Positions 3,082-35,924 of a stretch of 55,280 nt of DNA are shown here, one piece after another; position 1 is the stretch's first letter; each line of letters begins with the position of its first letter. The stretch comes from a virus (lineage: Duplodnaviria; Caudoviricetes): positions 1 through 55,280 of IMG/VR virus record IMGVR_UViG_3300025687_000004; one strand, written 5' to 3'. The notes beneath the pieces are model-generated. The model searched no databases. It was not told the origin of the DNA and saw only the letters and a program-made list of their open reading frames with translations. The position numbers and the translations under genes are program-made.

Positions 3082-3300
3082 TTATATTTTTATAAATTTA
3101 TAACCTCTATTGAGCCTTTTCTTTGTTATTTGCTCAACAGTTTTTGCAACTTCTTCTTTGTTTTTACAGGGAATTACCTTGTAGTTGCCAAGATTACCGC
3201 CAATTCGTCCCCAAACACATATAACGTCAATAGTATTAAACAAGGTTTTTTGCTCAAATAATTTGTAATATTTATGCTGATTAGTCCAATATAGAAACAT
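3082..3300 (-). CDS. WGR domain protein
   Basis: KYYKLFEQKTLF...VWGRIGG...KKRLNRGY; likely start MFLYW at 3300. Confidence 0.85.
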   Translation of the reverse strand: MFLYWTNQHKYYKLFEQKTLFNTIDVICVWGRIGGNLGNYKVIPCKNKEEVAKTVEQITKKRLNRGYKFIKI

Positions 3301-3313
3301 AGTAAAATAGAAG

Positions 3314-3898
3314 TTAGGTTTCGGATTTGCAATGATTGTTGAGGTAGTAATATAGGGTTGAGCGTCCAATGCCATATTTTTTAGCTAAAGCTCCTTTATG
3401 TACTTTTGTAGTATCTGTTTCTTGAGCAAGGATAGACTTAATTTCTTCCGCTTGTTCGTCAGTTAATTTACGCATACGCTTATAAACCCCACGCTCTTTC
3501 GCCTTTGCAATGCCTTCAAGTTGGCGTTCTCGTATTAGGCCATGTTCAAATTCGGCAAAAGCCCCCATAAGAGAAAGCATAAGTTGTGACATGGGAGAGG
3601 AGCTACTAGTAAATTCTAAGCCTTCTTTTACAAAATTCACTTGAGCTTGTTTATCTGTAATAGTTTTAATAATACGGCGTAAGTCGTCTAGATTTCGTGC
3701 TAATCTATCCATACAATGTACATAAACAACATCGCCATCACGAACATAGTTAAGTAATTCTTCTAGTTTAGGGCGTTTAGTATCTTTGCCTGACGCATGA
3801 TCAGTGAAGATTAGATCAAGTTCTATGCCATCAAGTTGTCTTTCTGTATTTTGTAATTTAGTGCTAACTCTTACGTAGCCTATTTTTTTACCGGTCAT
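3314..3898 (-). CDS. Serine recombinase (resolvase/invertase family)
   Basis: IGYVRVST..Q, GDVVYV..MDRLARN, FAEFE..LIRERQLEGI, C-terminal HTH. Confidence 0.95.
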   Translation of the reverse strand: MTGKKIGYVRVSTKLQNTERQLDGIELDLIFTDHASGKDTKRPKLEELLNYVRDGDVVYVHCMDRLARNLDDLRRIIKTITDKQAQVNFVKEGLEFTSSSSPMSQLMLSLMGAFAEFEHGLIRERQLEGIAKAKERGVYKRMRKLTDEQAEEIKSILAQETDTTKVHKGALAKKYGIGRSTLYYYLNNHCKSET

Positions 3899-11198: not shown

Positions 11199-11389
11199 CT
11201 TTATACGAACGCCTAATGAAAGAGCTTAAAACAGCAAGGACTAACCTTGAAACTACTATAGCTCAAGGGCAAGTTGAAGATTTTCCAAGTTATAAATTCA
11301 AAGCTGGGCAAGTAAATGGACTTGTTGCAGCTATGGATATTTGTAGAACAACTTTTAAAGAGTGTGATGATGAATATATCAGCAATTAA
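11195..11389 (+). CDS. Conserved phage hypothetical protein
   Basis: VEDFPSYKFKAGQVNGL pattern, typically found just before GroES-like genes. Confidence 0.65.
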   Translation: MTLYERLMKELKTARTNLETTIAQGQVEDFPSYKFKAGQVNGLVAAMDICRTTFKECDDEYISN

Positions 11390-11804
11390 AGCAAGTAATA
11401 ATCAAGATATAGGAATAGACCTAAATACTTTTGATGAAAAAGCAAAGCAAGCAGAAATAGCTCGTTTTAAAGATTTAACACCTTCTGGTTGGCAATTATA
11501 CATAAGACTATATGTGCCTCCAGCAAAAACATCAGGTGGTATTTTACTGCCCGATTCTACAAAGGACGAACAAAAATACTTAAATTTTGTTGGTTTAGTA
11601 GTAGCTATGTCAAAAGGTGCTTACAAGGACGATAGATACAAGTTTACAGGTCCATATTGTAAAGTAGGTGATTGGGTTAATTTCCCAAGACATGCAGGTT
11701 ATTTATGGGCATACGATAATATCCCAATGTATGCATTAAATGAAGATGTAATAACGGGCGTTATTGATAATCCTAAGCACAACATTCCATTAATTTCTAA
11801 ATAA
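11367..11804 (+). CDS. groES: GroES-like co-chaperonin
   Basis: PSGWQLYI, KTSGGILLPD, VVAM, CKVGDWV.F.RHAG, LNEDVI. Confidence 0.85.
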   Translation: MMNISAIKASNNQDIGIDLNTFDEKAKQAEIARFKDLTPSGWQLYIRLYVPPAKTSGGILLPDSTKDEQKYLNFVGLVVAMSKGAYKDDRYKFTGPYCKVGDWVNFPRHAGYLWAYDNIPMYALNEDVITGVIDNPKHNIPLISK

Positions 11805-13313: not shown

Positions 13314-14444
13314 ATGGCAATTGTACCTTCAGAATCTAGTTATCAAAAGATTGAATTAACGCAAAATATTAATTTATATTTGCCTTTTTTTACACCAACC
13401 GGTGAATTAACCATTACCGACATTATGGATGTAGAGCCAGATCAAGATGGTTGGCAAATTACCTTGCCTAATGCAACTGAAACACAACCAGGTGCTAATT
13501 TTATAATAAATAACATAAGCGTTTATTCTTTTTCGCTTATGTTGAATGATGGCGTTACCGAATTAATCAATATTGCTGGCGGTGAGGTGAAGTTTATTAA
13601 TCTTACTAATAATTCTAATGCTAATGGAATTTGGTCAGTAACTCCATTTGGAGGTGGGCAAGCTGCTGTTGCTGCATTAAACGCTACAAGTTCTAATGGC
13701 ACAATAAATATTGTTAATGGTGAAATTGTTCCACCTGGTGGAGATATTGACTTTACTTTAGGTGAGTTTTTGACAAACTTTCAGAGCCAAAGTATTTCAG
13801 ATGGCTTTCCTGTGATTTCTGATATTCAAGATTTTTCATTTTCAGTTAGAACTTTAAATGCTGGTTCTAATATTATTATTGATAATCAGGATGGCAAAGC
13901 TGGAAACCCAACAATTAGTTTAAATAACTCAATAGAAAATTTGTCCTCTGTACAAGTAGGCAGTCTTACTCTTAGTGGCTTAACAATAAGCACCAACGAG
14001 AATAGCGATATTTTTATTCAAACTACTGGTACTGGTAATACTGTAATTAACGGGGTTACGATTGATTCTAATAATAACGTTTCAGAAATTAATGATTTAA
14101 GTATAAATGGTAACTTTAGCAGTCCTTTTATACCTTCGGCATGGTGCGTGTTTACTGATACTATTACTGGCAGCAATAATACGATTGTGAATGAAAATTC
14201 TGCAAATGTGGCAAATATTACAGGGAGCAATGGAAATTATGTGATTGAATTTATAAACCCAATGCCATCAATAAATTATGCAGTAGTAATTACAACAGGT
14301 AGTAATGGCAGCGCATTACCACCACCAATATATCATGCATTTTTTACTGTAAGAAATTTAAACTCAGTTACTATAGCGGTACTAGATGCAAGCGGTGAAT
14401 TTGTACAAAGTATGCCAGATGGTGTTAGCGTAATTGTAATTTGA
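13314..14444 (+). CDS. Virion fibre/beta-rich structural protein
   Basis: ITLPNA..GANFIINN, DGKAGNPTISL linker, C-terminal AWCVF...GNYVIEF..PMPSINYAV domain. Confidence 0.6.
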   Translation: MAIVPSESSYQKIELTQNINLYLPFFTPTGELTITDIMDVEPDQDGWQITLPNATETQPGANFIINNISVYSFSLMLNDGVTELINIAGGEVKFINLTNNSNANGIWSVTPFGGGQAAVAALNATSSNGTINIVNGEIVPPGGDIDFTLGEFLTNFQSQSISDGFPVISDIQDFSFSVRTLNAGSNIIIDNQDGKAGNPTISLNNSIENLSSVQVGSLTLSGLTISTNENSDIFIQTTGTGNTVINGVTIDSNNNVSEINDLSINGNFSSPFIPSAWCVFTDTITGSNNTIVNENSANVANITGSNGNYVIEFINPMPSINYAVVITTGSNGSALPPPIYHAFFTVRNLNSVTIAVLDASGEFVQSMPDGVSVIVI

Positions 14445-14462
14445 TTATTTAATGCTAAAAAA

Positions 14463-14473
14463 TATGTTATAAT
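14463..14473 (+). promoter_or_regulatory. Extended -10 promoter of the capsid operon
   Basis: TATGTTATAAT. Confidence 0.65.
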
Positions 14474-14517
14474 GTATTTGTGGTAGTTGTTTTAACTTAT
14501 CATGATTCTTTCAAGGT

Positions 14518-14737
14518 TGGCTACAATTTTTGTTTCAAAGGTTGTAGCCATAAGTTCTACGAACTTTCAAATCGTATATTAGGTTTTTCTTTTGCCCCTT
14601 AAAAAGAAGCGTCAGACGAGACATAAAAACGTTGAATTTGGTTTTTAAAATCTCTCCATTAAAGATTTCTTCGTATAGCGGTTCTACGAACCCTTTAAAA
14701 TCGTATTTTTGGTTTCGAACACTCTCCTTAAAGATTC
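14518..14737 (+). ncRNA. Structured leader: ~15-bp hairpin plus three tandem pseudoknot-like units
   Basis: Hairpin 14518-14550; units near 14552, 14611 and 14680 share architecture with the unit at 24669. Confidence 0.6.
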
Positions 14738-14779
14738 ACAATATTTTTATTTAATAATTTTTATAATACGAGGAATATT

Positions 14780-15613
14780 ATGGCGTATGGCGTAAATGCT
14801 CCTTTTGGTTTAAGACCTATTTCATCTATAAACGGAGGTTCTTGGACCGAAAAGACAAATGAATATTTTATATATGCTGATGCTACTGGTACTACTACCT
14901 ATGAAATAAGTATATTTAATGGTGATCCGGTAGTATTTAATCCAACCAATGCTCAGGCAGGAACGATAGCTCGTTATCTACCAAATTATACAGATGGTAC
15001 ACCTTCTACATTCTCAGCATTACCAATCGTTGGTGTTTTTCAAAGCTGTGAATACATTAACACTACAGGTAATTTAGTATTGTCTCCCTATTGGCCAGCT
15101 AATACGCAGGTACAAGCAGGAAGCAAAATTAAAGCCTATGTACTAGATGATCCAAGCACTATTTTTGATGTGCAGGTTTCAACTTCTACAAACGCTAATG
15201 GTAATGCATTTGTATCAGATCCAGTGTTTCCAAATACTAATGGAGAAGCTAATCTAAATGGCTCTTTTGGTAGTAATTTTGCATTAAATATTGGTGGAGG
15301 TACAAACTTTGACACTGTGCAAGTAGGCGGTGTTGCTAATATTTATGCTAATAACCCAGCGGGTGGTGACACAAGAACTGGACAATCTGGTTTTTATCTT
15401 GATGTACAAACTAATACAGGCGGGGATGCAACGCACGATTACAACAAAACTACTGCAACTTTACCTTTAAAAGCTATTGGCTTTACTTTGAGTCCTAAAA
15501 ACAAGCCACGTTTAGTGGGGCAAACTATGGAAACTACTCCATTCTTAAATGTAAGAGTTTTAATTAATAACCACTATTACAAAGCTGGTACTCCAGGTAC
15601 TACACTTGCATAA
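14780..15613 (+). CDS. Head decoration/minor capsid protein
   Basis: NAPFGLRP...IFNGDPV...IVGVF...DDP..F; immediately upstream of the MCP; GAGG SD. Confidence 0.7.
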   Translation: MAYGVNAPFGLRPISSINGGSWTEKTNEYFIYADATGTTTYEISIFNGDPVVFNPTNAQAGTIARYLPNYTDGTPSTFSALPIVGVFQSCEYINTTGNLVLSPYWPANTQVQAGSKIKAYVLDDPSTIFDVQVSTSTNANGNAFVSDPVFPNTNGEANLNGSFGSNFALNIGGGTNFDTVQVGGVANIYANNPAGGDTRTGQSGFYLDVQTNTGGDATHDYNKTTATLPLKAIGFTLSPKNKPRLVGQTMETTPFLNVRVLINNHYYKAGTPGTTLA

Positions 15614-15636
15614 ATAATTTAAGAGGTAAATAAACA

Positions 15637-16536
15637 ATGATTAATACCGGTCAAATTGCCGAATTGCTGCGCCCAGGATTAAAAGCAGTATTTGGTGAAT
15701 ATCCAACATATCCTGAACAATGGACTGAAATATTTAAAACATATAAGTCTGATAAATACCAAGAGATTGATGTAGAGATGAAATATCTTGGTGCTGCTGA
15801 TATCAAGCCAGAAGGTCAGCCTATTGCGTCTGATAGTATGGGGCAAAGAGTGATTACTAACTACATTCATAAAAGTGTAGGGCTGTCTTTTACTATTACA
15901 AAAGAAGCAGTAGAAGATAATTTGTATCAAACTCAGTTTCCACAACAAGCGGTATCTCTTAGAAACTCATTAAGGGTTACTAAAAACATACTTGGAGCTA
16001 ATATATTAAATAATGCATTTAATCCAGCATATCCTATTGGAGATGGTCAATCAGTATGTTCTACTAGTCACCCAATTGACGGAGGAGTATTTTCAAATCG
16101 TCTTGGGGATGATGCTGACTTTAGTGAGGCAGCAGTAGAGCGAGCAATTATAGATATACAAAAGTTTCCAATGCAATCAGGAATACTTGCTCAAACAATG
16201 GCTAAAAAATTGATTGTTCCTAGGGAATTACAATTTGAAGCATCAGTATTGCTAAATAGTCAGTTTAGAACTGGCACAGCGGACAACGATATTAACGCTA
16301 TATATCACAATGATTATATGCCAGATGGATATAGAGTAAATCAATATCTAACTGACCCAGCTGCTTGGTTTATTATTACTGATGCACCTGATGGAATGAA
16401 GCATTTCCAAAGAACTCCAGTACAAACTGATACGTATGTTGATTATCCAACTGACAACGTTATGGCTAAAGCGTCAGAGCGTTATTCTTTTGGTGTGTCA
16501 AATCCACGTGGGATTTTTGGTTCTGCTGGTGTTTAA
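15637..16536 (+). CDS. Major capsid protein
   Basis: ELLRPGLKAVFG, FTITKEAVEDNLY, KKLIVP, YLTDPAAWFI, ERYSFG. Confidence 0.9.
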   Translation: MINTGQIAELLRPGLKAVFGEYPTYPEQWTEIFKTYKSDKYQEIDVEMKYLGAADIKPEGQPIASDSMGQRVITNYIHKSVGLSFTITKEAVEDNLYQTQFPQQAVSLRNSLRVTKNILGANILNNAFNPAYPIGDGQSVCSTSHPIDGGVFSNRLGDDADFSEAAVERAIIDIQKFPMQSGILAQTMAKKLIVPRELQFEASVLLNSQFRTGTADNDINAIYHNDYMPDGYRVNQYLTDPAAWFIITDAPDGMKHFQRTPVQTDTYVDYPTDNVMAKASERYSFGVSNPRGIFGSAGV

Positions 16537-16590
16537 ACATTAAGCAATTATTTGCTTAAATTTATTATTAATTCAAGAGCGTTTATAATT

Positions 16591-17637
16591 ATGGACAATA
16601 CTTCTGGCACTTACAATTTTCAATCAGTTGAAGTAGAATTGTTAATTAGAGACGCTTTTGAACAGATAGGTGTATTGCCTGAATTTATCACTCCGCAAAA
16701 ATTAGAATCCGCAAGACGAAGCATTAATTTAATGCTTTTAGAATGGATGAATAAAACCACTAACCTATGGACTATTCAAAGTGAATTTTTATCTTTAAAT
16801 GAATTTCAGATCAAATATTCGTTAGAAAAATACGTACTGGATATTACTGAATTAAATTTAAGAACTTCTAATAGAGAGTTATCTGGAAATCCAGAGTCAA
16901 GCAATGGCGGAATAGCTTCAAATGCTTTTGATGGAAATAACGCTACAGCTTGCACTCAAAATGCACCTGATGGAAAAATTTCATATGATTATGGGGTAGG
17001 TAATACTCGAAAAATTACTTTTGTAGGTGTTACATCTAATAATAAAACAGAATACTCTCTCGTCATAGAATACTCTTTAAATAATGCAGATCCATGGGAA
17101 ATTTTAAAAACTATTCCTAAACAATTATATAAAAAAGGCAAGTTAGTTTGGTTTGATATAACAGCCCCAGTAAATGCACGAGCATATCGAATACGAGAAA
17201 CTGACGGAGCAATTTTAGATATTCAAGAGATATATTTTAATAATAATGTTTTAGATACTGTAATTAGCAGCGTTAGTAGAGATGAATATTTACAAATGCC
17301 TCAAAAAAATATTACAGGAAGGCCATCTATTTTTTATTTTGATCGTACAATTACCCCATCTTTGTACATCTGGCCAGCACCAACCCAATATTATAATGCA
17401 ATTGATTATTCTTATAAGAAGGCAATGCAAGATGTGGGTTTATATACCAACACTTTAGAAATACCAGCAAGATTTTATCCGGCTCTAGTAGCAGGACTTA
17501 GTTTTAAATTAGCATTAAAATTTAACAATCAAATTGCTGAAATGCTAAATCAAGAATACCAAAATATATTTAATCTTGCGACCATAGAAGACAGCGAAGA
17601 CGTTATTTTTAGCATAAATCAAGGATGGTCTTCATGA
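16591..17637 (+). CDS. Head-tail connector-like virion protein with inserted discoidin/F5-8-like domain
   Basis: TSGTYNF...DAFEQIG...ARRSINL...NLWTI and GRPS..Y...WPAP flanking an ASNAFDGN...RAYRIR insert. Confidence 0.65.
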   Translation: MDNTSGTYNFQSVEVELLIRDAFEQIGVLPEFITPQKLESARRSINLMLLEWMNKTTNLWTIQSEFLSLNEFQIKYSLEKYVLDITELNLRTSNRELSGNPESSNGGIASNAFDGNNATACTQNAPDGKISYDYGVGNTRKITFVGVTSNNKTEYSLVIEYSLNNADPWEILKTIPKQLYKKGKLVWFDITAPVNARAYRIRETDGAILDIQEIYFNNNVLDTVISSVSRDEYLQMPQKNITGRPSIFYFDRTITPSLYIWPAPTQYYNAIDYSYKKAMQDVGLYTNTLEIPARFYPALVAGLSFKLALKFNNQIAEMLNQEYQNIFNLATIEDSEDVIFSINQGWSS

Positions 17638-17972
17638 GTTGGATACAAAGATGGAAAAGTAAATACGTAAAAGTAAATCCAAAAAACCCTAATGGACTTG
17701 GCGTATGCGATCGCAGTGGTTTTGTTTTTAATCATAAAGATTTAGTAAAACAAATGGAGTGGAGAGGGAATAATCTAGTGTGGACTGGACTTATGGTTGG
17801 CCCTCCTTTTTTAGATAAACCTTCAGAGCAAAACAGACCGCCTATTGTAAAAGACGATCCCAAAACTCTTAAAAATCCTAGATTGCCAAAGGATTATATT
17901 TCACCTGATAGCAATCCTGCACCTAATAACAAAGAGCTTACTTTTAAATTAAATAAAGTAAGGTGGAATTAA
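17634..17972 (+). CDS. Conserved phage protein (CDRSGF motif)
   Basis: GVCDRSGF...W.GLMVG...DP..LKNPR. Confidence 0.65.
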   Translation: MSWIQRWKSKYVKVNPKNPNGLGVCDRSGFVFNHKDLVKQMEWRGNNLVWTGLMVGPPFLDKPSEQNRPPIVKDDPKTLKNPRLPKDYISPDSNPAPNNKELTFKLNKVRWN

Positions 17973-17987
17973 AACAGGAGGTCTATT

Positions 17988-25984: not shown

Positions 25985-28203
25985 GTCAAGATAATTTTTG
26001 GGCTGAATTTGATCAACAACAAACTAATCCATCATATGTGAGTGATAATTTTTGGGCTGAATTTGACGATAGCCCTATAACTCAACCAAAACAAACCACT
26101 CAAGAGCCAGAGGGCGATTCTTGGGCTAGTTTTTTACCTAAAGCAGGATTAAAAGCAGCTACAAATATTGCAGATTTGCCTAGTGGAATAGAAAATTTAG
26201 TTGCTTTAAGTACAGAATACAGCCCTGTAAATTTATTTTCTAAATATTTTGGTGGTCCTTCATTGGCATATAAACCTATGTTACCAACAACTTCTGACGC
26301 TAGAGCTAAAATAAAAGAATATACTGGCGTTGATTTAGAACCAAAGCCTTCTAGTGCTGCTCAAAGAATAACTGGCAATATATTAGATTTTGCTGTTCCA
26401 GGCGGTATGTTTGCAAAAGCTGCTACAGCCCCGACTACTTTAGGCAAGGTTTTGAATACTGCAAAACCTATAGCTGGAGCAGGGGCACTAGGCGCAGGAA
26501 GTGGCGCACTGCAAGAAATGGGGGTAAATCCTTTAGTTGCTGATATTGGAGCTTCGCTTACACCTTATGGAGCAAAAAAGGCAATGCAAGGTATTAGCAA
26601 ACCTATCAAATACCTACTACCAACAGCAGAAGAAACAGCTAGAAAATCGTTTCAAAGACAAGTAGGCCAAGAGAATATCCCTCAAGTTTTAGAGAATTTA
26701 GACAAAAAATTCCCATTTGATGCTCCAGCTACTACAGCTGAATTAGCAGATAATGTTGGTATTGCTAAGATGCACCAAGCAATGAGTCCTAATATTGGTG
26801 CTATTTCTGACAAACAAAAAGAAGTAAACGCAATTTTAAAAGGTAAAATTGATAATTTATCTACAATGAGAAACCATGACCCTTATAATTTAGGCGAAAT
26901 AATTAGGGATGGGATAGAGAATAAATATCAAAATGCATTAAAAGAAAGAGCTTTCAATGCTAATCCGCTATATGAAAAACTTACAAGTGATACAGATAGA
27001 TTCCTCAGTTTACCTCATTTAAAAAATTACTTATCAGAAGAAAAAACAAGGCATTTAGGGCCATTAAAAAAAGAACTAGACGTTATTTCAAGTTGGACTA
27101 AGCCACCTAAACAAAGCCGTACGAGTATAGCAAAAGATCAACAAAATATAGTTGATGAAATTACAAACATTGACAAAAAAATAAAAGAGTTTAACAAATC
27201 ACCGGCTGTTACTTCTGTTTTAAGGGGAGAAAGAGATGCGTTGCAACAAAAATTACTGTCTAGTGAGGCTCAAAAAATAAGAAAAAATGATTTAAATTAT
27301 CCTCAAGTGGATAGTCTTTTGCAAAATTTAGAAAATGCGAAGAGTCAAAGAAGAACAAAAGGCGCAGGTGCTTCGGCCAAGCTATACGAACTAGCAAAAA
27401 AGAATGTATACAAAGATATACTTAAAGAGAAAGCTCCAGATATTACAGAAGCCAGAAACGTTTATAGAGAATATTCGAAACCTGTTTCTGCTATTGATAC
27501 TAATTCATTATTGAAAAAATTCGTTGAGAAAAAAACTTCAAAAAATCCATACAACGAACAAGAAATTACTAATTTTGTTTTATCTCCTGAAAGAGTGCCT
27601 AAAAAAATATTAGATAGTAGCATTGACGAAACAAAGGCTTTAATGAAGCAAATAGATAAAAACCCTGAAATGCTAAATGCGGTAAGAAGTAGTTTTATTC
27701 AAGACCTTGTTCCAAAGTCAGATTCAAAATTGTCTTACGATAAAATTGACAAATTTTTAACACGTCACAAAGGCAAACTACCGGAAGTATTTGATAACAA
27801 TCAAATACAAGTGTTAAACGATGCAAAAGATATACTAAAAGCTCGCAACAACGCTGAAAACATGGGAAGAGCAATTGGTTCTAACACTCAATCAGAAACA
27901 ACATTACTTGCTGAATTAGCCACTACTCCTATATCAGCATTTGGCAAACAAGCTGCAAAAATATTGCCATTTGGAACACGCATAAGTCCAATGTTATCTG
28001 GTGGTTATAATGCCGTGATGAAAGCTCAAAAACAAAATGTTCATGAAATACTAAAAGAGGCTTTGGTAGACCCAGAAAAAGCTAAATTATTGCTAATGCC
28101 TACTAAGGACATAAAATCGGCAGATCAATTAAACTCAATATTAGCAAGACTTGCTCCTATCTCAAAAGACCTAACAGAAATCGATAGCATGGGAGGCCAG
28201 TAA
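25981..28203 (+). CDS. Probable large internal virion/ejection protein
   Basis: Tandem DNFWAEFD N-terminus, GA-rich hydrophobic segment, GSNT...ALVDPEKAKLL. Confidence 0.6.
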   Translation: MSQDNFWAEFDQQQTNPSYVSDNFWAEFDDSPITQPKQTTQEPEGDSWASFLPKAGLKAATNIADLPSGIENLVALSTEYSPVNLFSKYFGGPSLAYKPMLPTTSDARAKIKEYTGVDLEPKPSSAAQRITGNILDFAVPGGMFAKAATAPTTLGKVLNTAKPIAGAGALGAGSGALQEMGVNPLVADIGASLTPYGAKKAMQGISKPIKYLLPTAEETARKSFQRQVGQENIPQVLENLDKKFPFDAPATTAELADNVGIAKMHQAMSPNIGAISDKQKEVNAILKGKIDNLSTMRNHDPYNLGEIIRDGIENKYQNALKERAFNANPLYEKLTSDTDRFLSLPHLKNYLSEEKTRHLGPLKKELDVISSWTKPPKQSRTSIAKDQQNIVDEITNIDKKIKEFNKSPAVTSVLRGERDALQQKLLSSEAQKIRKNDLNYPQVDSLLQNLENAKSQRRTKGAGASAKLYELAKKNVYKDILKEKAPDITEARNVYREYSKPVSAIDTNSLLKKFVEKKTSKNPYNEQEITNFVLSPERVPKKILDSSIDETKALMKQIDKNPEMLNAVRSSFIQDLVPKSDSKLSYDKIDKFLTRHKGKLPEVFDNNQIQVLNDAKDILKARNNAENMGRAIGSNTQSETTLLAELATTPISAFGKQAAKILPFGTRISPMLSGGYNAVMKAQKQNVHEILKEALVDPEKAKLLLMPTKDIKSADQLNSILARLAPISKDLTEIDSMGGQ

Positions 28204-28826
28204 TGGATTACAACACACTAAAAAACCAGATACAAAGTTATGCTAATCGTGATGATGCAGCTTTTATTGAGCAAATTCCTAACTTTATTGAGCAAGGAAT
28301 TAATCGTTTATACAGTGAAGCTAAAAATATTGGCTGGGAAGTTGTAATTACTGGAGATGTTGCGCTGAATGCAACGACTGTACCTAAGCCAGCAGGTTGG
28401 CTTGAAACTATTAGCCTTGAGCTGTATAGCGCAGATCAAACATTTTCTAAGTTTTTATTTCCTAGAAGTTACGAGTTTTGTAAGTCATACTGGCCTAATC
28501 AAACTTTAACAAGTGAACCCCAGTTTTATTCATATTTAGATGCTTATAACGATTTTTTTATTAGTCCAACTGCTGATAAAGCGTACAAGTATAGGTTGAT
28601 ATATTTAGGAATCCCTATATTTAACGAATACAACACTACAAACTTTTTAACTCTGAGATATCCAAGACTGTTATTTTATGCTTGCATGTTAGAAGCAATG
28701 CCATTTTTAAAAGATGACGAAAGGCTTGGCTCATTCGAACAATTATACGCTAGCAGCTTGTCAGATATTAACAAAGACAGCGCAAATCGTTACGTTGATA
28801 GAACTTCAGAGAGGGATAAGGATTGA
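28203..28826 (+). CDS. Head-tail adaptor (tail tubular A-like)
   Basis: MDYNTLK..IQSY..RDD..F...IP.FI...P.LLFYACMLEA.PFLKDDER. Confidence 0.75.
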   Translation: MDYNTLKNQIQSYANRDDAAFIEQIPNFIEQGINRLYSEAKNIGWEVVITGDVALNATTVPKPAGWLETISLELYSADQTFSKFLFPRSYEFCKSYWPNQTLTSEPQFYSYLDAYNDFFISPTADKAYKYRLIYLGIPIFNEYNTTNFLTLRYPRLLFYACMLEAMPFLKDDERLGSFEQLYASSLSDINKDSANRYVDRTSERDKD

Positions 28827-30406
28827 TGGCAGATTATATATTCCCTCTGACTTACAAGGCTGGCTTTAATAGAGATGGTACAGACTATCAACCTGAGTTT
28901 TGTACGGAGGGTCAATGGATAAGATTTAATGAAGGCAAGGTACAGAAAATAGGCGGAGTTGTTAGCCCTGGTGCATTACCTGATTATAACTTTGAAAAAG
29001 TACAAACAATTAATCTATTTCCTGACCATGATCCAAATAAAATAAAGGTTTATTTAGCGAGTCAGAGCAAAATATTTACATTTACAGTAACCCAAGATTT
29101 TGCTAACAAATCAGCAATTACAAATCTTGGAAATGAAGAGTTTAACAATCAAGCTTTTAACTCTGACACTTTGTTTCAATCAAGTGTTGTTATAGACAAT
29201 AAGGTAAAAAAGTTGTTGTTTTTAAAAACGTATAACGCTCAAAACATAGCAAGTAATACTAAGTGCAAGCTGTATCAGTTAAATATTGCTAATAATCAGT
29301 TTTCAGAAGTGCCTCAAGGACAAGGATTTTTAACAAATTTCAACAATCAAGTGAGTGGTGGTATGTGCTACGCTGCTCCTCATTTATTTTTATATGGTGA
29401 AAATGGCTTTGTGCAATATAGTAGAGCAAATAATCCTTTAGACTTTAGAGAAAATAATACAAGTGGTATTTTGTATATTTCTAATGATAAAGTAATATAC
29501 GCAGCATCTGTCCGAGGTGGTTCTAATAGTCCATCATTGCTCTTTTGGACTTTATCTAAAGTGGTAAGAATTACTAACACCTCCGAAGACAGCGATAGAG
29601 TAAGTTTTCAAATAGACGTTGTATCCAATGCGTCTTCTATTTTATCTTCAAGAGCAGTCGCCGAATATGATGGCTTATTTTTCTGGATAGGAACTGATAG
29701 ATTTTTTGTTTATAACGGCGTTGTCCAAGAAATGGTCAATAATAGCTCTATTAATTATTTCTTTGATAATCTTGACATTAATCATAGGCAATTAGTTTTT
29801 AGCGTCATAAATCCACGCTTTGGCGAAATATGGTGGTATTACCCAGAAAAAGGTCAAGATCAAGCGAATGTCAAAAATACCAGAGCATTGATCTACAACA
29901 AGCGTGAGAACTCTTGGTACGACACTGCTATAAGTCGTGATTGTGGCATATTTTCAAGCGATTTCGGTTTCATGGCAACTTATGGATTTAGTTTTCAAAA
30001 TGGCAATCTAAATAAGTTTTTGTGGAAGCATGAGGTTGGCGATAAAGAAATAGCTGTTGGTACTATAAACTCATCAATTATATCTTCAGTAACCACGCCA
30101 TTTATTTCGCAAGCTGCATTTAACACACAAAATCCAATGAGTGGAGTCGATAGATTCTTGCAATTAAAACGCATTGAACCTGATTTTGTAATGAACGATA
30201 GAAGCAAAGAAATTAAGGTTAGCATTAACACAAAAAGATACGGACAAAGCGCATTAACTACTTCTGTACCATTTACTTTCACAGGTGAAACAAAAAAAAT
30301 AGATACCAGAGAGCAAGGTAGATCAATATCTTTAACTTTTGAATCCGAACACTTTTTTAGGATGGGTAATATTATGCTACTTATGGCGAGTGGGGATGGT
30401 AACTGA
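28826..30406 (+). CDS. Tail nozzle / packaged-DNA stabilisation protein (P22 gp10/tubular B-like)
   Basis: GFNRDGT, WIRF, FFWIG.DRFFVYNG.V, FGEIWWYYP, RIEPDF, KIDTR..GR. Confidence 0.75.
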   Translation: MADYIFPLTYKAGFNRDGTDYQPEFCTEGQWIRFNEGKVQKIGGVVSPGALPDYNFEKVQTINLFPDHDPNKIKVYLASQSKIFTFTVTQDFANKSAITNLGNEEFNNQAFNSDTLFQSSVVIDNKVKKLLFLKTYNAQNIASNTKCKLYQLNIANNQFSEVPQGQGFLTNFNNQVSGGMCYAAPHLFLYGENGFVQYSRANNPLDFRENNTSGILYISNDKVIYAASVRGGSNSPSLLFWTLSKVVRITNTSEDSDRVSFQIDVVSNASSILSSRAVAEYDGLFFWIGTDRFFVYNGVVQEMVNNSSINYFFDNLDINHRQLVFSVINPRFGEIWWYYPEKGQDQANVKNTRALIYNKRENSWYDTAISRDCGIFSSDFGFMATYGFSFQNGNLNKFLWKHEVGDKEIAVGTINSSIISSVTTPFISQAAFNTQNPMSGVDRFLQLKRIEPDFVMNDRSKEIKVSINTKRYGQSALTTSVPFTFTGETKKIDTREQGRSISLTFESEHFFRMGNIMLLMASGDGN

Positions 30407-30678
30407 TGATAGTGTGGCCTGAATATATTGATATTAAAGATTGGGCAGCAAATTTAATTGTTGATTATCCTGATGAATACTTGCCTATACTTGAAGATGC
30501 AGACAAATGGGAAGACTGGGCATCTATAGTTGCGGGTACTGGAGTTTTTGCAAGAAATGATATCCCAGCACCTTTTTCTGTAACAGAAGGAGAAAAAAAG
30601 CAAGAGTTCAAAGATTGGCAAGAATGGGCAAAGACAGTTTATAATTTAATGATAAATAGCGGAGATAAAAATGTTTAA
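30406..30678 (+). CDS. Conserved Trp-rich small virion protein
   Basis: DWAANL...WEDWA...P.P...FKDWQEWA. Confidence 0.65.
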   Translation: MIVWPEYIDIKDWAANLIVDYPDEYLPILEDADKWEDWASIVAGTGVFARNDIPAPFSVTEGEKKQEFKDWQEWAKTVYNLMINSGDKNV

Positions 30679-32281
30679 TCCAATGGTAAACATGACAAAT
30701 GATGAAGATATGGAAGAAAACAATCCATACATGACAAATAACGCTCCTATGATGCCGAATTATTATGCCGAAGGGGGTATGGTCGAAAATGAAGAAATGT
30801 CGCCTCTAATCGCACTTATGGGGCAAAATGAAGGCAATCAAAACGAAAGCAAACCTAAAGCTGATAATAATCCATATCCATCGCTTGCAGAAATGATTCG
30901 CCAGCAAGGTGAAGGTGAGGATACAGTGCTAGCTCATATTAATCCTGTTGAAGCTGAAATGCTAGATGTAATGAATGGTAGCACTGTAAATCCAGTTACT
31001 GGATTGCCTCAGTTTGGTAGATGGAATTTTTGGAAAAACCCTATCAAAGCTACAAAAAAATGGGCAAAAAAGGGGGGAGTTGGTAATTTATTAACCTATG
31101 GACCGTTTGGAGCTTTAGGTATAGAAATGCTGCCTAAAAAAGCTAACAAATGGGTCACTTCTGGTACAAATAAATATGTCTTACCTGCTGCTGCTTCTAT
31201 GCTTGGGAATACAATATTACCAGGTATTGGTGGAGTGATTGGTGGTAGTTTAGGTGGTGCTGCTGGTGGCGCTCATAAAGGCAGGGCGGGCGAAGGTGCA
31301 ATGAGAGGTGCTATGATAGGAGCTACTTTGCCTAGTGCTGCGAGTTTAGCTGGAAGTGGTGCAAATGCTTTAGGTATGGAAGGCTTAGGACAAACTCTAA
31401 CCAATTACGGCGAACAAAATTCAATCATGAAGGCTTTAGGTTTAAGCGATATGTTTGGAGGTAGCGGTGGTATAAGCGGTGTTTCTGCTGGTGATGGAGG
31501 TAGTTATATTGCTAACGAAGTGCCAGTATCAGAAATAGTAAAGCAGGAAGCAGCCAAGACGGCGGCAACTGAATCTGCAAAACAAGCAGCAAAGAAATCA
31601 TTTACCGATATGCTCATGGATAATAGTAAGAACTTCTTCAGCCAGCCTTCTAATTTACTTACTGCTGCAGTGCTTGGTGGTTCTTTAATGAATAGGCCAA
31701 AACCTCCAAAAGACAAATCACCAGAAGAATTAGCAGCAGAAATAAAACGTTTGCAAATGGGTTTATTGCTTACCCCTCAAGAACAAGCAGCAAAAGAAGC
31801 AGCAGACTTGGCTGCTGAACAATCAAAAAGACGTGTTGCTAGAAATAAGTTCTTACCAGAAGAGCGGTTTAATATAGAGCCTTTATATGTAAAGACCAAT
31901 AGTCCTGAAGAATACAGGCAAAGAGGTAGGTGGCTTGAGTATTATAATAATCCACAGTTTAGCGGTAGCCCAGTAATGATGAAAGAAGGCGGAGAAGTTA
32001 AGCCAAAAATTTCTTATGAAATAGAGCAATTTAGTTATCCTTCTGGCTTAGGCTTTTATGTAAGCGGTGAAACTAAAGGTCAGGATGATAAAATACCAGC
32101 TATGCTATCTGACGGGGAGTATGTAATTCCTGCTGATACAGTTGCGCATTTAGGCGATGGCAATAATAACGCTGGAGCTAAAAAACTTGACGAAATGATA
32201 AAAAAAATAAGAGGTAGTAAAGGCATGAAAAACGCCCTACCGCCTAAAGCAAAATCATTAACAGCTTATTTGGGGATGTAG
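30671..32281 (+). CDS. Internal virion/ejection (pilot-like) protein
   Basis: YAEGG, DTVLAHINP.EA..L..NPVTGLP, Gly-rich hydrophobic stretch, GQDDKIPAMLSDGEYVIPAD. Confidence 0.7.
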   Translation: MFNPMVNMTNDEDMEENNPYMTNNAPMMPNYYAEGGMVENEEMSPLIALMGQNEGNQNESKPKADNNPYPSLAEMIRQQGEGEDTVLAHINPVEAEMLDVMNGSTVNPVTGLPQFGRWNFWKNPIKATKKWAKKGGVGNLLTYGPFGALGIEMLPKKANKWVTSGTNKYVLPAAASMLGNTILPGIGGVIGGSLGGAAGGAHKGRAGEGAMRGAMIGATLPSAASLAGSGANALGMEGLGQTLTNYGEQNSIMKALGLSDMFGGSGGISGVSAGDGGSYIANEVPVSEIVKQEAAKTAATESAKQAAKKSFTDMLMDNSKNFFSQPSNLLTAAVLGGSLMNRPKPPKDKSPEELAAEIKRLQMGLLLTPQEQAAKEAADLAAEQSKRRVARNKFLPEERFNIEPLYVKTNSPEEYRQRGRWLEYYNNPQFSGSPVMMKEGGEVKPKISYEIEQFSYPSGLGFYVSGETKGQDDKIPAMLSDGEYVIPADTVAHLGDGNNNAGAKKLDEMIKKIRGSKGMKNALPPKAKSLTAYLGM

Positions 32282-32284
32282 ATT

Positions 32285-34339
32285 ATGGCAGAAACTTTTT
32301 ACCCTGGTTTATCGAATCAACTTGATCCGAGAGCAGAGGAAATATACGTACTGAATCACCCCGATATACAGACACGGCGTTGGCTTAATCCTGATCGCTT
32401 TAATGATGTTAATTACGCTAGAGACTGGCTACAAAGAGGCGGTATATACGACTTTAATCCACGCCAGCACGATAGGAAAGGTTTTGAAAAGACGCTAGAA
32501 GGACGGCTTGAAAAAGGCTATAGTAGGCTAGCTCAAGATAGAGCAAGACTTGGCGGTTTAAATTATCCAGCATATCAAGGTAAAACACTTGCTCCAATGT
32601 CGGATTTGACGCAAAGAGCAAGAGGTCTGCAAGAATACTACGCAGGAAAACCAACGCCATATTCAAATAAAATATCTTCTGTATTATCTCGTCCTACTGG
32701 ATTATCTGATAATTCTATTTCTGGATTGCTAGAAAATACAGGTAATCGCCAAAGAGATTATGGCAATTCTCTGTTAGGTAAACTAAAAAAAGAATTTCGC
32801 TCATCTTATAACGATAGAGTAGATCGTTTTCAAAGAAAAAGTGGTAGAGATATTGACAGAGGCGTTGGCGAATTTAGAGGCAAACTTGGTGATATAAAGA
32901 CATTAAGCAGCAACCTTGATCAAAATGCTAACATTGCTACTGCTAAAGCTCTGCAAGGCTTATCTGGACAAAAGCAAGCAAGACGTAACTTGCTTATTGA
33001 TAATTTGGAGCAGTTTGGCAAGCAAAAACAAGGTCTTACTAATCTACAATTAAAAGCAGATAAAGCAGCTTTTGACGCAGAAGCGCAAGCTCCGTTTGAA
33101 AAAGCAAATAGATTAGAGGAAGTTTTAAATAGGGGTAATAACGCAATTAGAGGCGAACTTCACCCAGATTTAGAAAAGCCTATGGTTGATCAAATCAATC
33201 AGGCTATGACTGCATATAATACTCCCAATCAAAGATACCAAGGCGAAATGATAGCTGGCAGTAATCCAGAGCTAGACACTTCACAGGAGCTTATGGGGCG
33301 TTTAAGTTCTAAATTTAGAGATAGTTTTTATCCTGAAAGAAAAGAGCTTACAGGTAGATTAAGCAATGCGGAGAGAAGTGTTAGCGAATCTGCTTTAGAC
33401 AATGTTCCAGAAGCTATTAGAGGTCAAATAGATCAGCTAGAATACGCAGGAAAAAAACGCCTTAAATCTGATCTTGGAAGACTTTCTAATAAATACACAA
33501 GACTAGGTCAATATGGCTCGACTCAACATATGAGAGAAGCAGAGGAAAGGGCAAGAGAATTAAACGAATCTATATTAGAACAACGTAATAAACTTATTGA
33601 AGGTAATTTAAAAAACCAACTGCAAATGCAGCATCAGTCTAATATTGGTGATATAAAAAAGCTACGTATGCTTGGTGATCAAGGTCAGCAAGAGTTTGGT
33701 GATAGTATTAAAAATATTAGAGACCTGAATAGACTTGGCTCAACTAAATGGAAAAATCAACAAGCTGAGAATGAAGAGCTTTATAAAAACTACATGAACG
33801 AAGCTATGTGGATGTGGCCACACATGCGAGGTCAGGCTATGCGCAGTGGCAGAAGCGGGGCATTCTCTGATGTATTTAACACTATGAGGAATAATAATAT
33901 CAGCTTGGAGAATTTAGCTAATCTCAATACTAATTACCAAGAAATGGAAAGAGAAATAGATAATTACAGAACTCAAGTAGATAATCAAGCTAATCAATAT
34001 CAAGGTCAGATCAGCAGCTTACAATCTCAGCTTGATGAGCAAAGAAGATTATTAGCAGATCGTCAAAGACAGGCAGAGCAGGAAAGGCTTGCTGCGCAAA
34101 GAAGACTGCAAGAATCACAGCAAGAACAGCAAAGATTATCCAGTATTGTACCAAATTGGAGTGCTTTTAATCCGCGTAATTACGATAATGTAACGATATC
34201 TGCCCATGATCTAGCAAGAGAGTTTTATCGCTCGCAAGACCCAGCTATTGCAGAAAGAGCAAGAAATGATTCAGCTTTTCGTAATAGTATCGATAGTTTC
34301 CTTGGATATCCAAATCTAAACTTAGTCGTTAGAAGGTAA
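32285..34339 (+). CDS. DNA ejection/transfer protein
   Basis: Duplicated Y.G..lA..s motif (YQGKTLAPMS, YQGEMIAGSN), Q/R-rich helical body. Confidence 0.65.
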   Translation: MAETFYPGLSNQLDPRAEEIYVLNHPDIQTRRWLNPDRFNDVNYARDWLQRGGIYDFNPRQHDRKGFEKTLEGRLEKGYSRLAQDRARLGGLNYPAYQGKTLAPMSDLTQRARGLQEYYAGKPTPYSNKISSVLSRPTGLSDNSISGLLENTGNRQRDYGNSLLGKLKKEFRSSYNDRVDRFQRKSGRDIDRGVGEFRGKLGDIKTLSSNLDQNANIATAKALQGLSGQKQARRNLLIDNLEQFGKQKQGLTNLQLKADKAAFDAEAQAPFEKANRLEEVLNRGNNAIRGELHPDLEKPMVDQINQAMTAYNTPNQRYQGEMIAGSNPELDTSQELMGRLSSKFRDSFYPERKELTGRLSNAERSVSESALDNVPEAIRGQIDQLEYAGKKRLKSDLGRLSNKYTRLGQYGSTQHMREAEERARELNESILEQRNKLIEGNLKNQLQMQHQSNIGDIKKLRMLGDQGQQEFGDSIKNIRDLNRLGSTKWKNQQAENEELYKNYMNEAMWMWPHMRGQAMRSGRSGAFSDVFNTMRNNNISLENLANLNTNYQEMEREIDNYRTQVDNQANQYQGQISSLQSQLDEQRRLLADRQRQAEQERLAAQRRLQESQQEQQRLSSIVPNWSAFNPRNYDNVTISAHDLAREFYRSQDPAIAERARNDSAFRNSIDSFLGYPNLNLVVRR

Positions 34340-34341
34340 AT

Positions 34342-35220
34342 TCAATCCTGATGATCAATTATTGAAAAATCTTGAGACGAGTCTCCCATTAATTGCGGTT
34401 GCGCTCCTCCTAATATTGGCTGTCCATGCTGATTTAATATAGGTTCGCCATACGAAACATCTATTTGCTGCTGACTAATATTTGGGTTAGAACTTTCAAT
34501 TAAAAACGATTCACCAGGTTGAATAATTTGCGAATTATTTTGTTGAACTTCTGTAAAACTTTGAAAATCATCTTGCCCTGATTCTGTGTTCACCGAGTGC
34601 AAGTTATGTAAATTATTTTGTTGAACTTCCGAAGCGTGCTTTAAGCTATCTTGTTCTACAGCGTCAATAGATGAAATTTCAGAATTTATAAACTTATCAA
34701 TAGGCGCTTCGTTTTTTAGAGACTCTATTTCCTTGTCTTTGTATTGTATGATTTGCATTAAACGAGAATTTATTTCAAGTACCTTTTTTAAATTCCGCTC
34801 ATTCTGTTCCTGTGATTTTTCTAATTTATCCTTTTGTTGACTTAAAACCTTAATTGAAAAACGCAACGAATTAACTGTTCTATTTAGTGTAATAACTTCT
34901 TCGTTTATCTGATTTGAGCGCTTTAACACTGATTCTTTTTCTTGATGTATAGTTTGAATCTCAGACTTGAGCTTTTGAGAATCGTGTTGAGTTAATGTTA
35001 GAAGAGCAGCTTTTTCTTGTTTTAATTTATCAATTTCTGTCTGTTTTTTTTGCAACTCTACTGCATAAATAGGTATAAGATTGGTGTGCAAGTTAGCGTC
35101 TGCATTTTGACAATTATCAATTGTTGGCTGTGCAGTAGTTTGCTGCAATTGTTGAACGCTTGATTGAGCAGCTACATTATTGACATGTGCTGCTTGTAAA
35201 GATTTAAATTGTGCTTTCAT
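34342..35220 (-). CDS. Coiled-coil, Gln-rich hypothetical protein (possible host-directed cargo)
   Basis: Long coiled coil, EVQQNN repeat, low-complexity C-terminus. Confidence 0.65.
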   Translation of the reverse strand: MKAQFKSLQAAHVNNVAAQSSVQQLQQTTAQPTIDNCQNADANLHTNLIPIYAVELQKKQTEIDKLKQEKAALLTLTQHDSQKLKSEIQTIHQEKESVLKRSNQINEEVITLNRTVNSLRFSIKVLSQQKDKLEKSQEQNERNLKKVLEINSRLMQIIQYKDKEIESLKNEAPIDKFINSEISSIDAVEQDSLKHASEVQQNNLHNLHSVNTESGQDDFQSFTEVQQNNSQIIQPGESFLIESSNPNISQQQIDVSYGEPILNQHGQPILGGAQPQLMGDSSQDFSIIDHQD

Positions 35221-35222
35221 AT

Positions 35223-35924
35223 TTAAACGCTCTTTCTAATACCAAGAATTACACCATGAATACCATAACGGCGATGCTGCACGTTGTCTATTTCGTTTAT
35301 TTTTTGAGGTTTGTTATAACCAAGATTAAAGTAATTATAAGAAAGTTCGGCTGTATAATTATCTGACATTTTGTATTCTGTACCTAGAGTGATCTTATAG
35401 GCAATACGATTCACTCTTTTGCTTTTTACAGTCTCGAGAGGATAATGCTCTTCATTTGATACAGCATAACCAGTAGCTTTTTCTTGTAACGTAGAAATAC
35501 CAATACCACCTCCTACAAAAGGTGTAAAGTTTTTCCAGTGGCAAATATCTTTATATCCATTTAAGAAGAACGCATGAGCCTTTGTTTTGCTTTCTATATT
35601 GAATTTATTATCAAATTTGTCGGTTGTTTTTTCTTTAGAATGAAACAAGAAGTAGTAATCAAACGCTCCTTCAACTTTTATTCCGTTAGAAAATTTATAA
35701 CCACCACCTATTTCTACTAAAGGAAAAGCATGAGATACTTTTATTTTACCTTTGTATTCATCATCTCTTATATGAAAAGGATTTATAGTGTTTAAACCAG
35801 TTCCACCTTTTATATAAAATTGGTTTTCTGAAGCATGAGCCGCTTTGCTTGTTGTTATTATGTATGTTGTAGCTAAAAATGGTGTTAAACCTAGTGCTAT
35901 TAGAATGTATTTTAAATAGTTCAT
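35223..35924 (-). CDS. Outer-membrane beta-barrel (opacity/OmpA-TM-like) protein
   Basis: Signal peptide, FYIKGGTG, GGGYKF, FTPFVGGGIG, LSYNYFNLG, C-terminal GIR. Confidence 0.85.
   Translation of the reverse strand: MNYLKYILIALGLTPFLATTYIITTSKAAHASENQFYIKGGTGLNTINPFHIRDDEYKGKIKVSHAFPLVEIGGGYKFSNGIKVEGAFDYYFLFHSKEKTTDKFDNKFNIESKTKAHAFFLNGYKDICHWKNFTPFVGGGIGISTLQEKATGYAVSNEEHYPLETVKSKRVNRIAYKITLGTEYKMSDNYTAELSYNYFNLGYNKPQKINEIDNVQHRRYGIHGVILGIRKSV

Follow-up and report, generated by a model that had tools for sequence, protein, structure and literature searches.

To our knowledge, pseudoknots in the messenger RNA (mRNA) leaders of DNA phages are known mainly from one case, that of T4 gene 32. 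There, according to the published account (PMC3014915), a pseudoknot lies 67 nucleotides (nt) upstream of the start codon and is followed by an A+U-rich stretch; RNase E cuts at -71, which leaves the pseudoknot at the mRNA 5' end, and no T4 mRNAs are more stable than the gene 32 transcripts. A 2023 survey of IMG/VR (PMC10690425) states that this element has no model in Rfam; the survey also reports 8,495 unnamed candidate structured RNAs (the DNAVirus_X set), which are conserved, covarying intergenic elements, and five of which typically lie upstream of a major capsid protein family. Here we describe a module of ~60 nt that occurs three times in tandem in the leader ahead of the capsid gene, and once more farther downstream, in the virus record IMGVR_UViG_3300025687_000004, the whole of which (55,280 bases) is referred to as the window. 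The units are a real, well-supported structured RNA family, and it is highly likely that they are a selected RNA structure acting in cis on late-gene expression.

Other described RNAs also bear on the comparison. The preQ1-I and SAM-II/SAM-V aptamers combine a short P1 helix, a loop-to-tail P2 helix and an A-rich third loop in the P1 groove within ~30-35 nt. The exoribonuclease-resistant RNAs (xrRNAs) found in flaviviruses and plant viruses fold compactly around pseudoknots, are often arranged in tandem and meet a 5'-to-3' enzyme head-on. The put RNAs of HK022 are promoter-proximal, cis-acting structured RNAs of phage operons that need no dedicated phage protein, and ToxI consists of near-identical repeats that an adjacent ToxN-type toxin excises. 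Comparison of the whole window with Rfam 15 at gathering scores gave no match, and in 14300-14900 only seven rows appeared (E = 1.5-5.1), far below the cut-offs, with no xrRNA family among them. A description of the motif was absent from the literature titles and abstract openings that were matched, and the titles listed for xrRNA and bacteriophage named no phage xrRNA.

A covariance model (R1) was built from 84 units of the window and its relatives, the seed including window units 1-3; a permissive pseudoknot scanner written in Python had been noisy in A+T-rich sequence and was dropped, nhmmer and Infernal being used instead. Over the whole window, with filters off, R1 returned four matches (E = 1e-9 to 3e-7), all on the + strand, the next best having E = 0.24. 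Three of the four were the tandem units that the initial annotation had described, each of which could also be read directly in the sequence, and the other was the fourth unit it had mentioned (24668-24725), found by R1 though outside the seed. Relatives were gathered by searches with the capsid protein and with the 277-amino-acid (277-aa) protein encoded just upstream of it, yielding 88 related viral-contig loci. In these the gene order (376-aa protein, spacer, 277-aa protein, capsid) was preserved, and units were present in nearly all of the spacers. R1 matched 123 times in 70 of the related loci, always on the gene strand, and a further 60 times in 34 loci that an exact 20-nt pattern had retrieved; among related viral contigs, ~60 distinct leaders bear the unit, and arrays were co-oriented with the next gene without exception. 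Five further related genomes, searched whole, held four to five units each, on one strand per genome, laid out as one array plus one or two separate single units (two in one genome). The initial annotation had suggested an unrecognised cis-acting RNA of late leaders, to be checked by a covariance-model search, and that suggestion held: the search found matches on the gene strand of related viral contigs and no Rfam 15 family.

The 5' half of the unit is a compact H-type pseudoknot, with a P1 helix of 3-4 base pairs (bp), a P2 helix of 4-5 bp and an A-rich third loop (L3). Two types were distinguished. In type A (consensus AGUUUCUACGAAACU-UAAAA-UCGUA), P1 has 4 bp, the first loop is UC, P2 has 5 bp, no base lies between P2 and the 3' strand of P1, and the A-rich L3 has 5-6 nt. 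In type B (consensus GUCAGRCGAGAC-AUUAAAA-CGUY), P1 has 3-4 bp, the first loop is a single base, P2 has 4 bp, one A is left unpaired and L3 has 6-7 nt. With its 5-7 nt, L3 would be placed to run along the P1 minor groove. The stem with loop-to-tail pairing had been proposed from the window itself, and covariation in the relatives supports it. Among 78 distinct type A sequences, aligned by MAFFT on sequence only, 94.9% of cells were paired (88.1% in shuffles, 16-40% in slid controls), and the covariation score was 0.209 vs 0.092 in shuffles, a value equalled in 0 of 500, the shuffle control being one that leaves relatedness in place. The P2 pair 13-33 was AU in 69 sequences, CG in 9 and unpaired in none; pair 10-36 was AU in 56, GU in 14 and GC in 8; and the P1 pairs 4-21 and 5-20 alternated among GC, AU and UA. 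Compensated changes recurred across different unit positions and lineages. A plain-hairpin alternative, in which P1 is extended to 6 bp around a 3-nt loop, was rejected: its pair 7-13 was UA in 68 sequences and unpaired, without compensation, in 10, and the changes in column 13 that break this pair were all compensated at column 33. Since the rival hairpin is uncompensated where it differs from the pseudoknot, selection acts on the pseudoknot. For type B (28 sequences), 88.1% of cells were paired, and the P2 pairs 11-29 and 12-28 each occurred as GC, GU and AU; the outermost proposed pair, 10-30, was unpaired in 16 of the 28, so P2 of this type was taken as 4 bp. Throughout, departures from Watson-Crick pairing were G-U, not A-C, and cells scored as 'other' were few. 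The many G-U pairs, together with the strict co-orientation with genes, indicate that it is the + strand RNA that is selected, which points away from a DNA operator.

In its 3' half, the unit has a GG, almost always part of GGU, 3-7 nt after P2 in 92 of the 95 distinct units; the conservation of this dinucleotide, first noticed in the window, thus extends through the family. A CC follows the GG after 5-16 nt in all 92 GG-bearing units. It lies in the loop (nYCCnUAAA) of a hairpin, P3, with a pyrimidine-rich 5' arm and a purine-rich 3' arm, and the arms found at the equivalent place differ widely in letters while remaining able to pair (UUCCU/AGGAA, AAUCU/AGAUU, GUUCUU/AAGAAU, GCUUUUU/AAAAAGC). 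On the structure-blind alignment A1, 67.2% of P3 cells were paired vs 53.1% when shuffled, the covariation score was 0.454 vs 0.270 (equalled in 0 of 500 shuffles), and the signal peaked at slide 0. Alignment A2 was left out of the P3 counts and A1 used instead because its R1 P3 columns carry MAFFT register shifts. A best stem of at least 5 bp was found in 95% of real segments vs 72% of shuffled ones. Thus the second hairpin claimed by the initial annotation stands as a feature of the family, and as a stem it is weak: it is poor in some units, unit 3 of the window among them (4 of 5 pairs), and its folding had a mean z of only 0.01. All P3 5' arms and loops resemble an anti-Shine-Dalgarno sequence (CUCC, UCCU), and P3 may sequester the ribosome-binding site. 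RNAalifold returned one helix of this kind, joining the 5' arm of P3 in unit 1 (~14590-14593) to the Shine-Dalgarno region (~14770-14775; alignment A5, columns 64-67/296-299); it was rejected, since the Shine-Dalgarno columns were out of register and the compensatory counts are taken as an alignment artefact.

The initial annotation had further proposed that the CC loop pairs with the GG, making the unit a double pseudoknot. Because GG and CC are both invariant, covariation cannot test this contact. According to a reading of the unit list, the bases flanking the two do not covary: the base before GG varies (U, C or G) among close relatives and the base after CC is a constant A, and an extension of the GG:CC pairing into the flanks found no support in this variation. 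In a lineage whose first unit lacks the GG, the loop mostly lacks the CC as well (L016, L011, L018, L051, L031, L077 and L067, vs L010), and this joint loss is a hint of a link, which may reflect a single evolutionary event. The second pseudoknot is thus neither supported nor refuted, and 'double' is unproven.

The order A-B-A was found in 20 of 20 aligned leaders, with units of the two types differing in both P1 and P2 letters, and this fixed order indicates that the units are old paralogues with fixed places and not recent duplicates. Single units displayed with their upstream context were of type A, and a unit at 10274 of locus L133 proved to be the last unit of a second full array. When arrays were counted with nhmmer across every locus, without removal of overlaps, 88 of the 111 stood before the 277-aa gene; the others precede different virion genes, many of them encoding long, fibre-like proteins that begin MPKPAIT or similarly. 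Copy number is three before the cement-like and capsid genes and one before other virion (tail-fibre-like) genes, as the initial annotation had anticipated in placing the highest copy number before the capsid genes. The second array of L133 (10160-10329, nearly identical to that at 1805-2088) lies ~8 kb downstream of the capsid-leader array and precedes a tail-fibre-like open reading frame (ORF), from which it seems that the whole leader cassette can be copied in front of another gene.

How far the family extends was examined with sequence patterns. The 20-nt pattern occurred in seven stretches among one genome each of 185,579 prokaryote species, which we estimate to be about the chance number for a pattern with two degenerate positions in ~6x10^11 bases, and two of the seven fitted R1. 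One of these two, L094, is a 14-kb phage-like contig with a three-unit array before a homologue of the 277-aa gene. With the cellular scan at the estimated chance level and L094 phage-like, the element is, within this narrow scan, a phage feature. In three distant leaders (L019-L021), whose capsid proteins are 40-47% identical, the same architecture was spelled in different letters (P1 AGAG/CTCT, TGGT/ACCA, and AGG/CCT or GAGG/CCTC; P2 ACCG or ACUG with CGGU) and was followed by a G+C-rich hairpin. In these leaders a conserved palindrome, CGCGAAT(T)CGCG, which has no counterpart in the main family, stands after the modules and just before the ribosome-binding site (~2360-2470 in each locus). 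A pattern for the distant variant, GAACYGTAC-N3-14-ATTCGGT, occurred in at least 115 stretches of viral contigs and yielded no new members: of 120 matches, nearly all stood in unrelated, mostly coding-looking contexts, and only the records of L019-L021, some of them recovered again under different identifiers, looked like modules. The capsid gene of L020, used as query for relatives, matched no contigs other than those of L020 and L019. A single cultured relative was found, Pelagibacter phage HTVC027P, whose capsid gene is 72% identical over 153 nt; it has the GroES-to-capsid gene order in common with the window and a 78-nt spacer before the equivalent gene, and R1 found no match in a 12-kb stretch of it at E up to 10.

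In the window, the leader with the three units occupies the 335-nt spacer 14445-14779, between the ORFs of the 376-aa and 277-aa proteins. The extended -10 promoter reported at its start was located as a promoter-like element, TGTTATAAT, at 14465-14473 (+; consensus match only). The identical 9-mer occurs on the + strand at 14465, 21047 and 24593, each time preceding a virion-gene start, and matches to TGNTATAAT number 12 in the window vs 6.3 expected; in relatives, TGnTAnnnT or TTGACG-17-TACAAT heads the corresponding spacer. The copy at 21047 is accompanied by no unit and stands only ~20 nt from the ATG at 21074; late promoters may share TGTTATAAT as a motif and be joined by the module only if the leader is long. 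Between the predicted transcription start and unit 1 stands the 5' hairpin 14518-14550 (+), also seen earlier, with 15-nt arms (14518-14532/14536-14550) that are 87% complementary around a 3-nt loop; it is part of the minimum-free-energy fold, and its sequence differs between relatives. Whole-leader thermodynamic folds gave z values of -3.11 and -2.88, alike on both strands, so that folding cannot decide the strand.

The helix coordinates of the units were read directly from the sequence; all are on the + strand. Unit 1 (type A, 14551-14608; R1 53.8 bits, E = 1.1e-9) has P1 at 14552-14555/14563-14566, P2 at 14558-14562/14572-14576, L3 at 14567-14571, GG at 14582-14583 and P3 at 14587-14593/14602-14608 with loop GCCCCTTA. 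Unit 2 (type B, 14610-14668; 42.1 bits, E = 3e-7) has P1 at 14611-14613/14620-14622, P2 with one G-U at 14615-14618/14630-14633, L3 at 14623-14629, GG at 14640-14641 and P3 at 14648-14653/14663-14668 with loop CTCCATTAA. Unit 3 (type A, 14678-14738; 51.8 bits, E = 2.8e-9) has P1 at 14680-14682/14690-14692, P2 at 14685-14689/14701-14705, L3 at 14693-14700, GG at 14711-14712 and the weak P3 at 14721-14725/14732-14736. Units 1 and 3 have GTTCTACGAAC exactly in common, as well as a 23-nt stretch at 87% identity, and the pattern TACGA-N6-20-TCGTA occurs twice in the window vs 0.19 times expected, a count of two being reached in 1 of 100 shuffles. An A+T-rich spacer (14739-14779, +) with the Shine-Dalgarno sequence GAGGA then precedes the ATG at 14780. 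The single unit 4 (type A, 24668-24725, +; 46.9 bits, E = 3.1e-8) stands in a leader headed by the second TGTTATAAT promoter-like element (24593-24601, +) and directly follows a 5' hairpin with a 10-pair stem (24641-24667, +); the terminator-like 'T tail' called after this hairpin is the start of the unit itself. Its P1 is at 24669-24672/24680-24683, its P2 at 24675-24679/24689-24693 (one U-G), its GG at 24699-24700 and its P3 region at ~24704-24724, and the ORF 24755-25984 lies downstream.

Across the family, placement is tied to the start codon. In 54 of 58 distinct arrays the last unit match ends 26-51 nt (median 44) before it, and the four outliers are leaders whose last unit was missed by nhmmer. 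Of 54 distinct upstream contexts, 21 have an extended -10-like motif whose end lies 7-30 nt ahead of the first unit detected, which would let the pseudoknot begin ~0-23 nt from the predicted transcription start. Contigs from three RNA libraries of three studies span the window leader (14506-14772, 14516-14682 and 14547-14704), which shows presence in RNA libraries only, while 13900-14445 was covered by no contig of four RNA runs that had been chosen with words from 14300-15300. Since the contigs are blind to RNA ends and the runs were chosen by words from this region, neither a start site nor a relative abundance is concluded from them.

The window is a complete virus record with direct terminal repeats and ~34% G+C. 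Protein families were sought in 44 of its ORFs with Pfam and in 18 with PHROGs, and many ORFs had no family. Among the genes recognised are an SU10-type portal and adaptor, a terminase domain and a patatin-like lipase (Pfam), tail-fibre-like and virion structural proteins (PHROGs), and RecT, YqaJ, DnaB, two DNA methylases and a small serine recombinase; these genes mark a tailed phage of a Gram-negative host. The relatives are a widespread group of uncultured aquatic phages. No phage-encoded RNA polymerase was found among the ORFs scanned, from which reliance on the host enzyme follows. Upstream of the leader lies a GroES-like gene (11316-11804), and downstream lie the gene of the 277-aa protein (14780-15613, +), which has no family and whose nearest named clusters are 'phage cement' (0.85-0.89), so that a cement- or decoration-like role is a lead only, and then the major head protein gene (15637-16536, +; phrog_371, E = 4e-8). 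The patatin-like phospholipase gene (17988-19148, +; PF01734, E = 1e-25) stands within the virion-gene block, with an adaptor-like gene on one side and a tail-fibre-like gene on the other. A sodium:solute symporter family gene (45416-46822, -; PF00474, E = 8e-7) and an outer-membrane beta-barrel protein gene (35223-35924, -; PF13505, E = 3e-11) are possible host-derived auxiliary genes. The window also encodes a small WGR-domain protein (3082-3375, -), a C-5 cytosine methylase (989-2041, +), an MT-A70 family methylase (51493-52623, +) and a serine recombinase of 194 aa (3314-3898, -), the size of which fits an invertase or resolvase and not an integrase. In one relative (L062), the 376-aa gene is separated from the late promoter and leader by an insertion at 1857-2362 that comprises genes of a YefM-type antitoxin (PF02604, E = 1e-21) and a YoeB-type toxin (PF06769, E = 5e-36), and in another (L038) the equivalent spacer, 1,212 nt long, contains different inserted sequence; cargo seems to be accepted immediately upstream of the late promoter.

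What the module does for the phage is best approached from the T4 gene 32 leader, and because of that precedent a 5' untranslated region (5' UTR) module that hinders decay and frees the ribosome-binding site is favoured. Our tentative reading, drawn from analogy, is that the units are structured RNA modules of virion-gene 5' leaders that stabilise late mRNAs and insulate ribosome-binding regions. The pseudoknot, at or near the mRNA 5' end or heading an intercistronic segment, would be a barrier to 5'-end-dependent decay, whether by RNase E entry or scanning or by a 5' exonuclease, and the module would prevent upstream sequence from pairing with the A+U-rich ribosome-binding region ~35-45 nt downstream. 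This would make late messages longer-lived and well translated, and the effect of copy number would be additive, with three units before the cement-like and capsid genes and one before tail-fibre-like genes. The stabiliser reading is favoured by the position of the first unit, often 7-30 nt after an extended -10 motif and hence near the predicted mRNA 5' end. Several observations weigh on the other side. The helices are short and A-U rich, and P3 segments fold no better than their dinucleotide shuffles. In the window leaders another hairpin and 66-77 nt lie between the -10 element and the first unit, so that the module is not 5'-terminal there; a variable-sequence hairpin intervenes in some other upstream contexts too, and some single units directly follow a coding region with no promoter-like motif nearby. 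The RNA contigs that span the leader are blind to strand as well as to ends and could include DNA carry-over. Finally, the conservation of the single-stranded GG, CC and L3 adenines exceeds what a passive barrier needs, and this surplus indicates a specific tertiary fold or a trans-acting partner.

A trans-acting partner is the core of one alternative, which we consider rather unlikely as a whole: an operator at which a phage or host protein represses, activates or times translation of virion genes, much as gp32 does in T4, where it nucleates on the gene 32 pseudoknot and then extends along the A+U-rich spacer as far as the ribosome-binding site. Besides that precedent (PMC3014915), it would account for single-stranded positions conserved beyond the needs of the fold (GGU, the YCC..UAAA loop, the L3 adenines), for the fixed distance to the start codon across an A+T-rich spacer with TTTAA-like repeats, and for the use of the same module before several different virion genes, which suits co-regulation. 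However, no candidate RNA-binding protein was found among the ORFs scanned with Pfam and PHROGs, many of which have no family, three copies would be superfluous for an operator, and A+T-rich spacers are ordinary at 34% G+C. Processive antitermination of the put type, in which the nascent module would bind RNA polymerase or its factor and let long late operons be read through, had been raised by the initial annotation and is in our view improbable. One array or unit lies promoter-proximally behind each late promoter-like site, and the phage depends on the host RNA polymerase; but terminator-like sites are not enriched in the late region (14440-34400; 12 vs 11.7 in shuffles), P3 hairpins lack U tails, some units are intergenic with no promoter, and put RNAs consist of two stem-loops and not pseudoknots. 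The fixed start-codon distance likewise points to translation or decay and not to elongation. Antitermination has no positive support.

The resemblance of the P1/P2/A-rich L3 architecture to the preQ1-I and SAM-II aptamers, together with highly conserved core letters, could suggest tandem ligand-sensing aptamers that tune capsid synthesis, a notion that we hold to be very unlikely. Neither aptamer was matched in 14300-14900 even at E up to 10, units 1 and 2 are followed by no expression platform or terminator, the downstream genes encode virion proteins, the scan of cellular genomes stayed at the estimated chance level, and the 44 scanned ORFs included no family of the queuosine or methionine pathways. 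Also at odds with the evidence is a decoy or antitoxin RNA made in bulk late in infection, be it a ToxI-like type III mimic, which the initial annotation had listed as its alternative, or a sponge for a host RNA-binding protein. It would explain tandem pseudoknot-forming repeats and a leader present in RNA libraries, yet the units are divergent, of two types in A-B-A order and commonly single, they are in every case linked to a start codon downstream, structural genes flank them, and the scan of prokaryote genomes turned up no host copies; the ToxN model PF13958 had no match in the genome either, a point of little weight since 0 of 14 control genomes matched. We give it hardly any credence, and neither the riboswitch nor the ToxI-like reading has support. 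Scarcely any more credible is an operator at the DNA level, with interleaved inverted repeats bound by a dimeric regulator of late promoters: inverted repeats do lie near promoters, and symmetric operators can change on both half-sites, but such an operator would not explain why the + strand departs from Watson-Crick pairing by G-T and not by A-C (pair 10-36, GU 14 and other 0; type B pairs 11-29, GU 8, and 12-28, GU 12). Gene orientation is moreover strict, the repeats interleave as a pseudoknot, and some units lie away from promoter motifs.

We conclude that the initial annotation was partly confirmed in what it observed and partly supported in what it proposed, and that, by analogy with T4 gene 32, the module probably helps late messages survive or be translated. 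Beyond stabilisation and insulation in general, the module could be a new phage RNA device with a tertiary fold of its own, made of the pseudoknot and an element closed by GG:CC, and acting either as a stackable decay stop akin to xrRNAs or as the docking site of a factor that switches on the whole virion regulon; this is doubtful but would matter. If it were true, one ~60-nt cassette before each late gene would set late-gene output in either variant. Copy number tracks the expected protein demand. A module that stabilises and insulates mRNA would be a natural, portable and stackable 5' UTR part, and a route to understanding how phages without a polymerase of their own secure late-gene output; a factor-binding module would define the late regulon. 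Either way, a short, well-defined family is available for Rfam and structural work.

Compared with the described systems, the module most resembles the T4 gene 32 leader in architecture. Both elements are H-type pseudoknots of two short coaxial helices in phage mRNA leaders, tens of nt upstream of the start codon; in both an A+U-rich, unstructured spacer leads to the ribosome-binding site (14739-14779 and its counterparts are almost all A/T); and the present units often stand at a predicted 5' end or head an intercistronic segment. In contrast to gene 32, the present element precedes virion genes and not the gene of a single-strand-binding protein, and it comes in arrays of three, in two unit types and with an additional GGU and CC-loop hairpin. 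Unlike preQ1-I, SAM-II and SAM-V, it has no Rfam match and was found neither before metabolic genes nor, beyond the chance level of the scan, in cellular genomes. The xrRNAs differ in lying in 3' regions or within RNA virus genomes and in wrapping a ring about their 5' end, a feature that nothing in the present data shows, though the proposed GG:CC contact could close such a ring. Whereas put RNAs are paired stem-loops that serve early operons, the present units are pseudoknots tied to start codons, with no conspicuous terminators downstream. Tandem repeats able to form pseudoknots are a trait in common with ToxI, but the present units are divergent (A-B-A), often single, and located beside structural genes. 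The module may already be numbered in the DNAVirus_X set (PMC10690425). As a kind of element, the phage leader pseudoknot has a precedent; the family itself appears new, being modular, of two types, arranged in A-B-A arrays and placed before every major virion gene.

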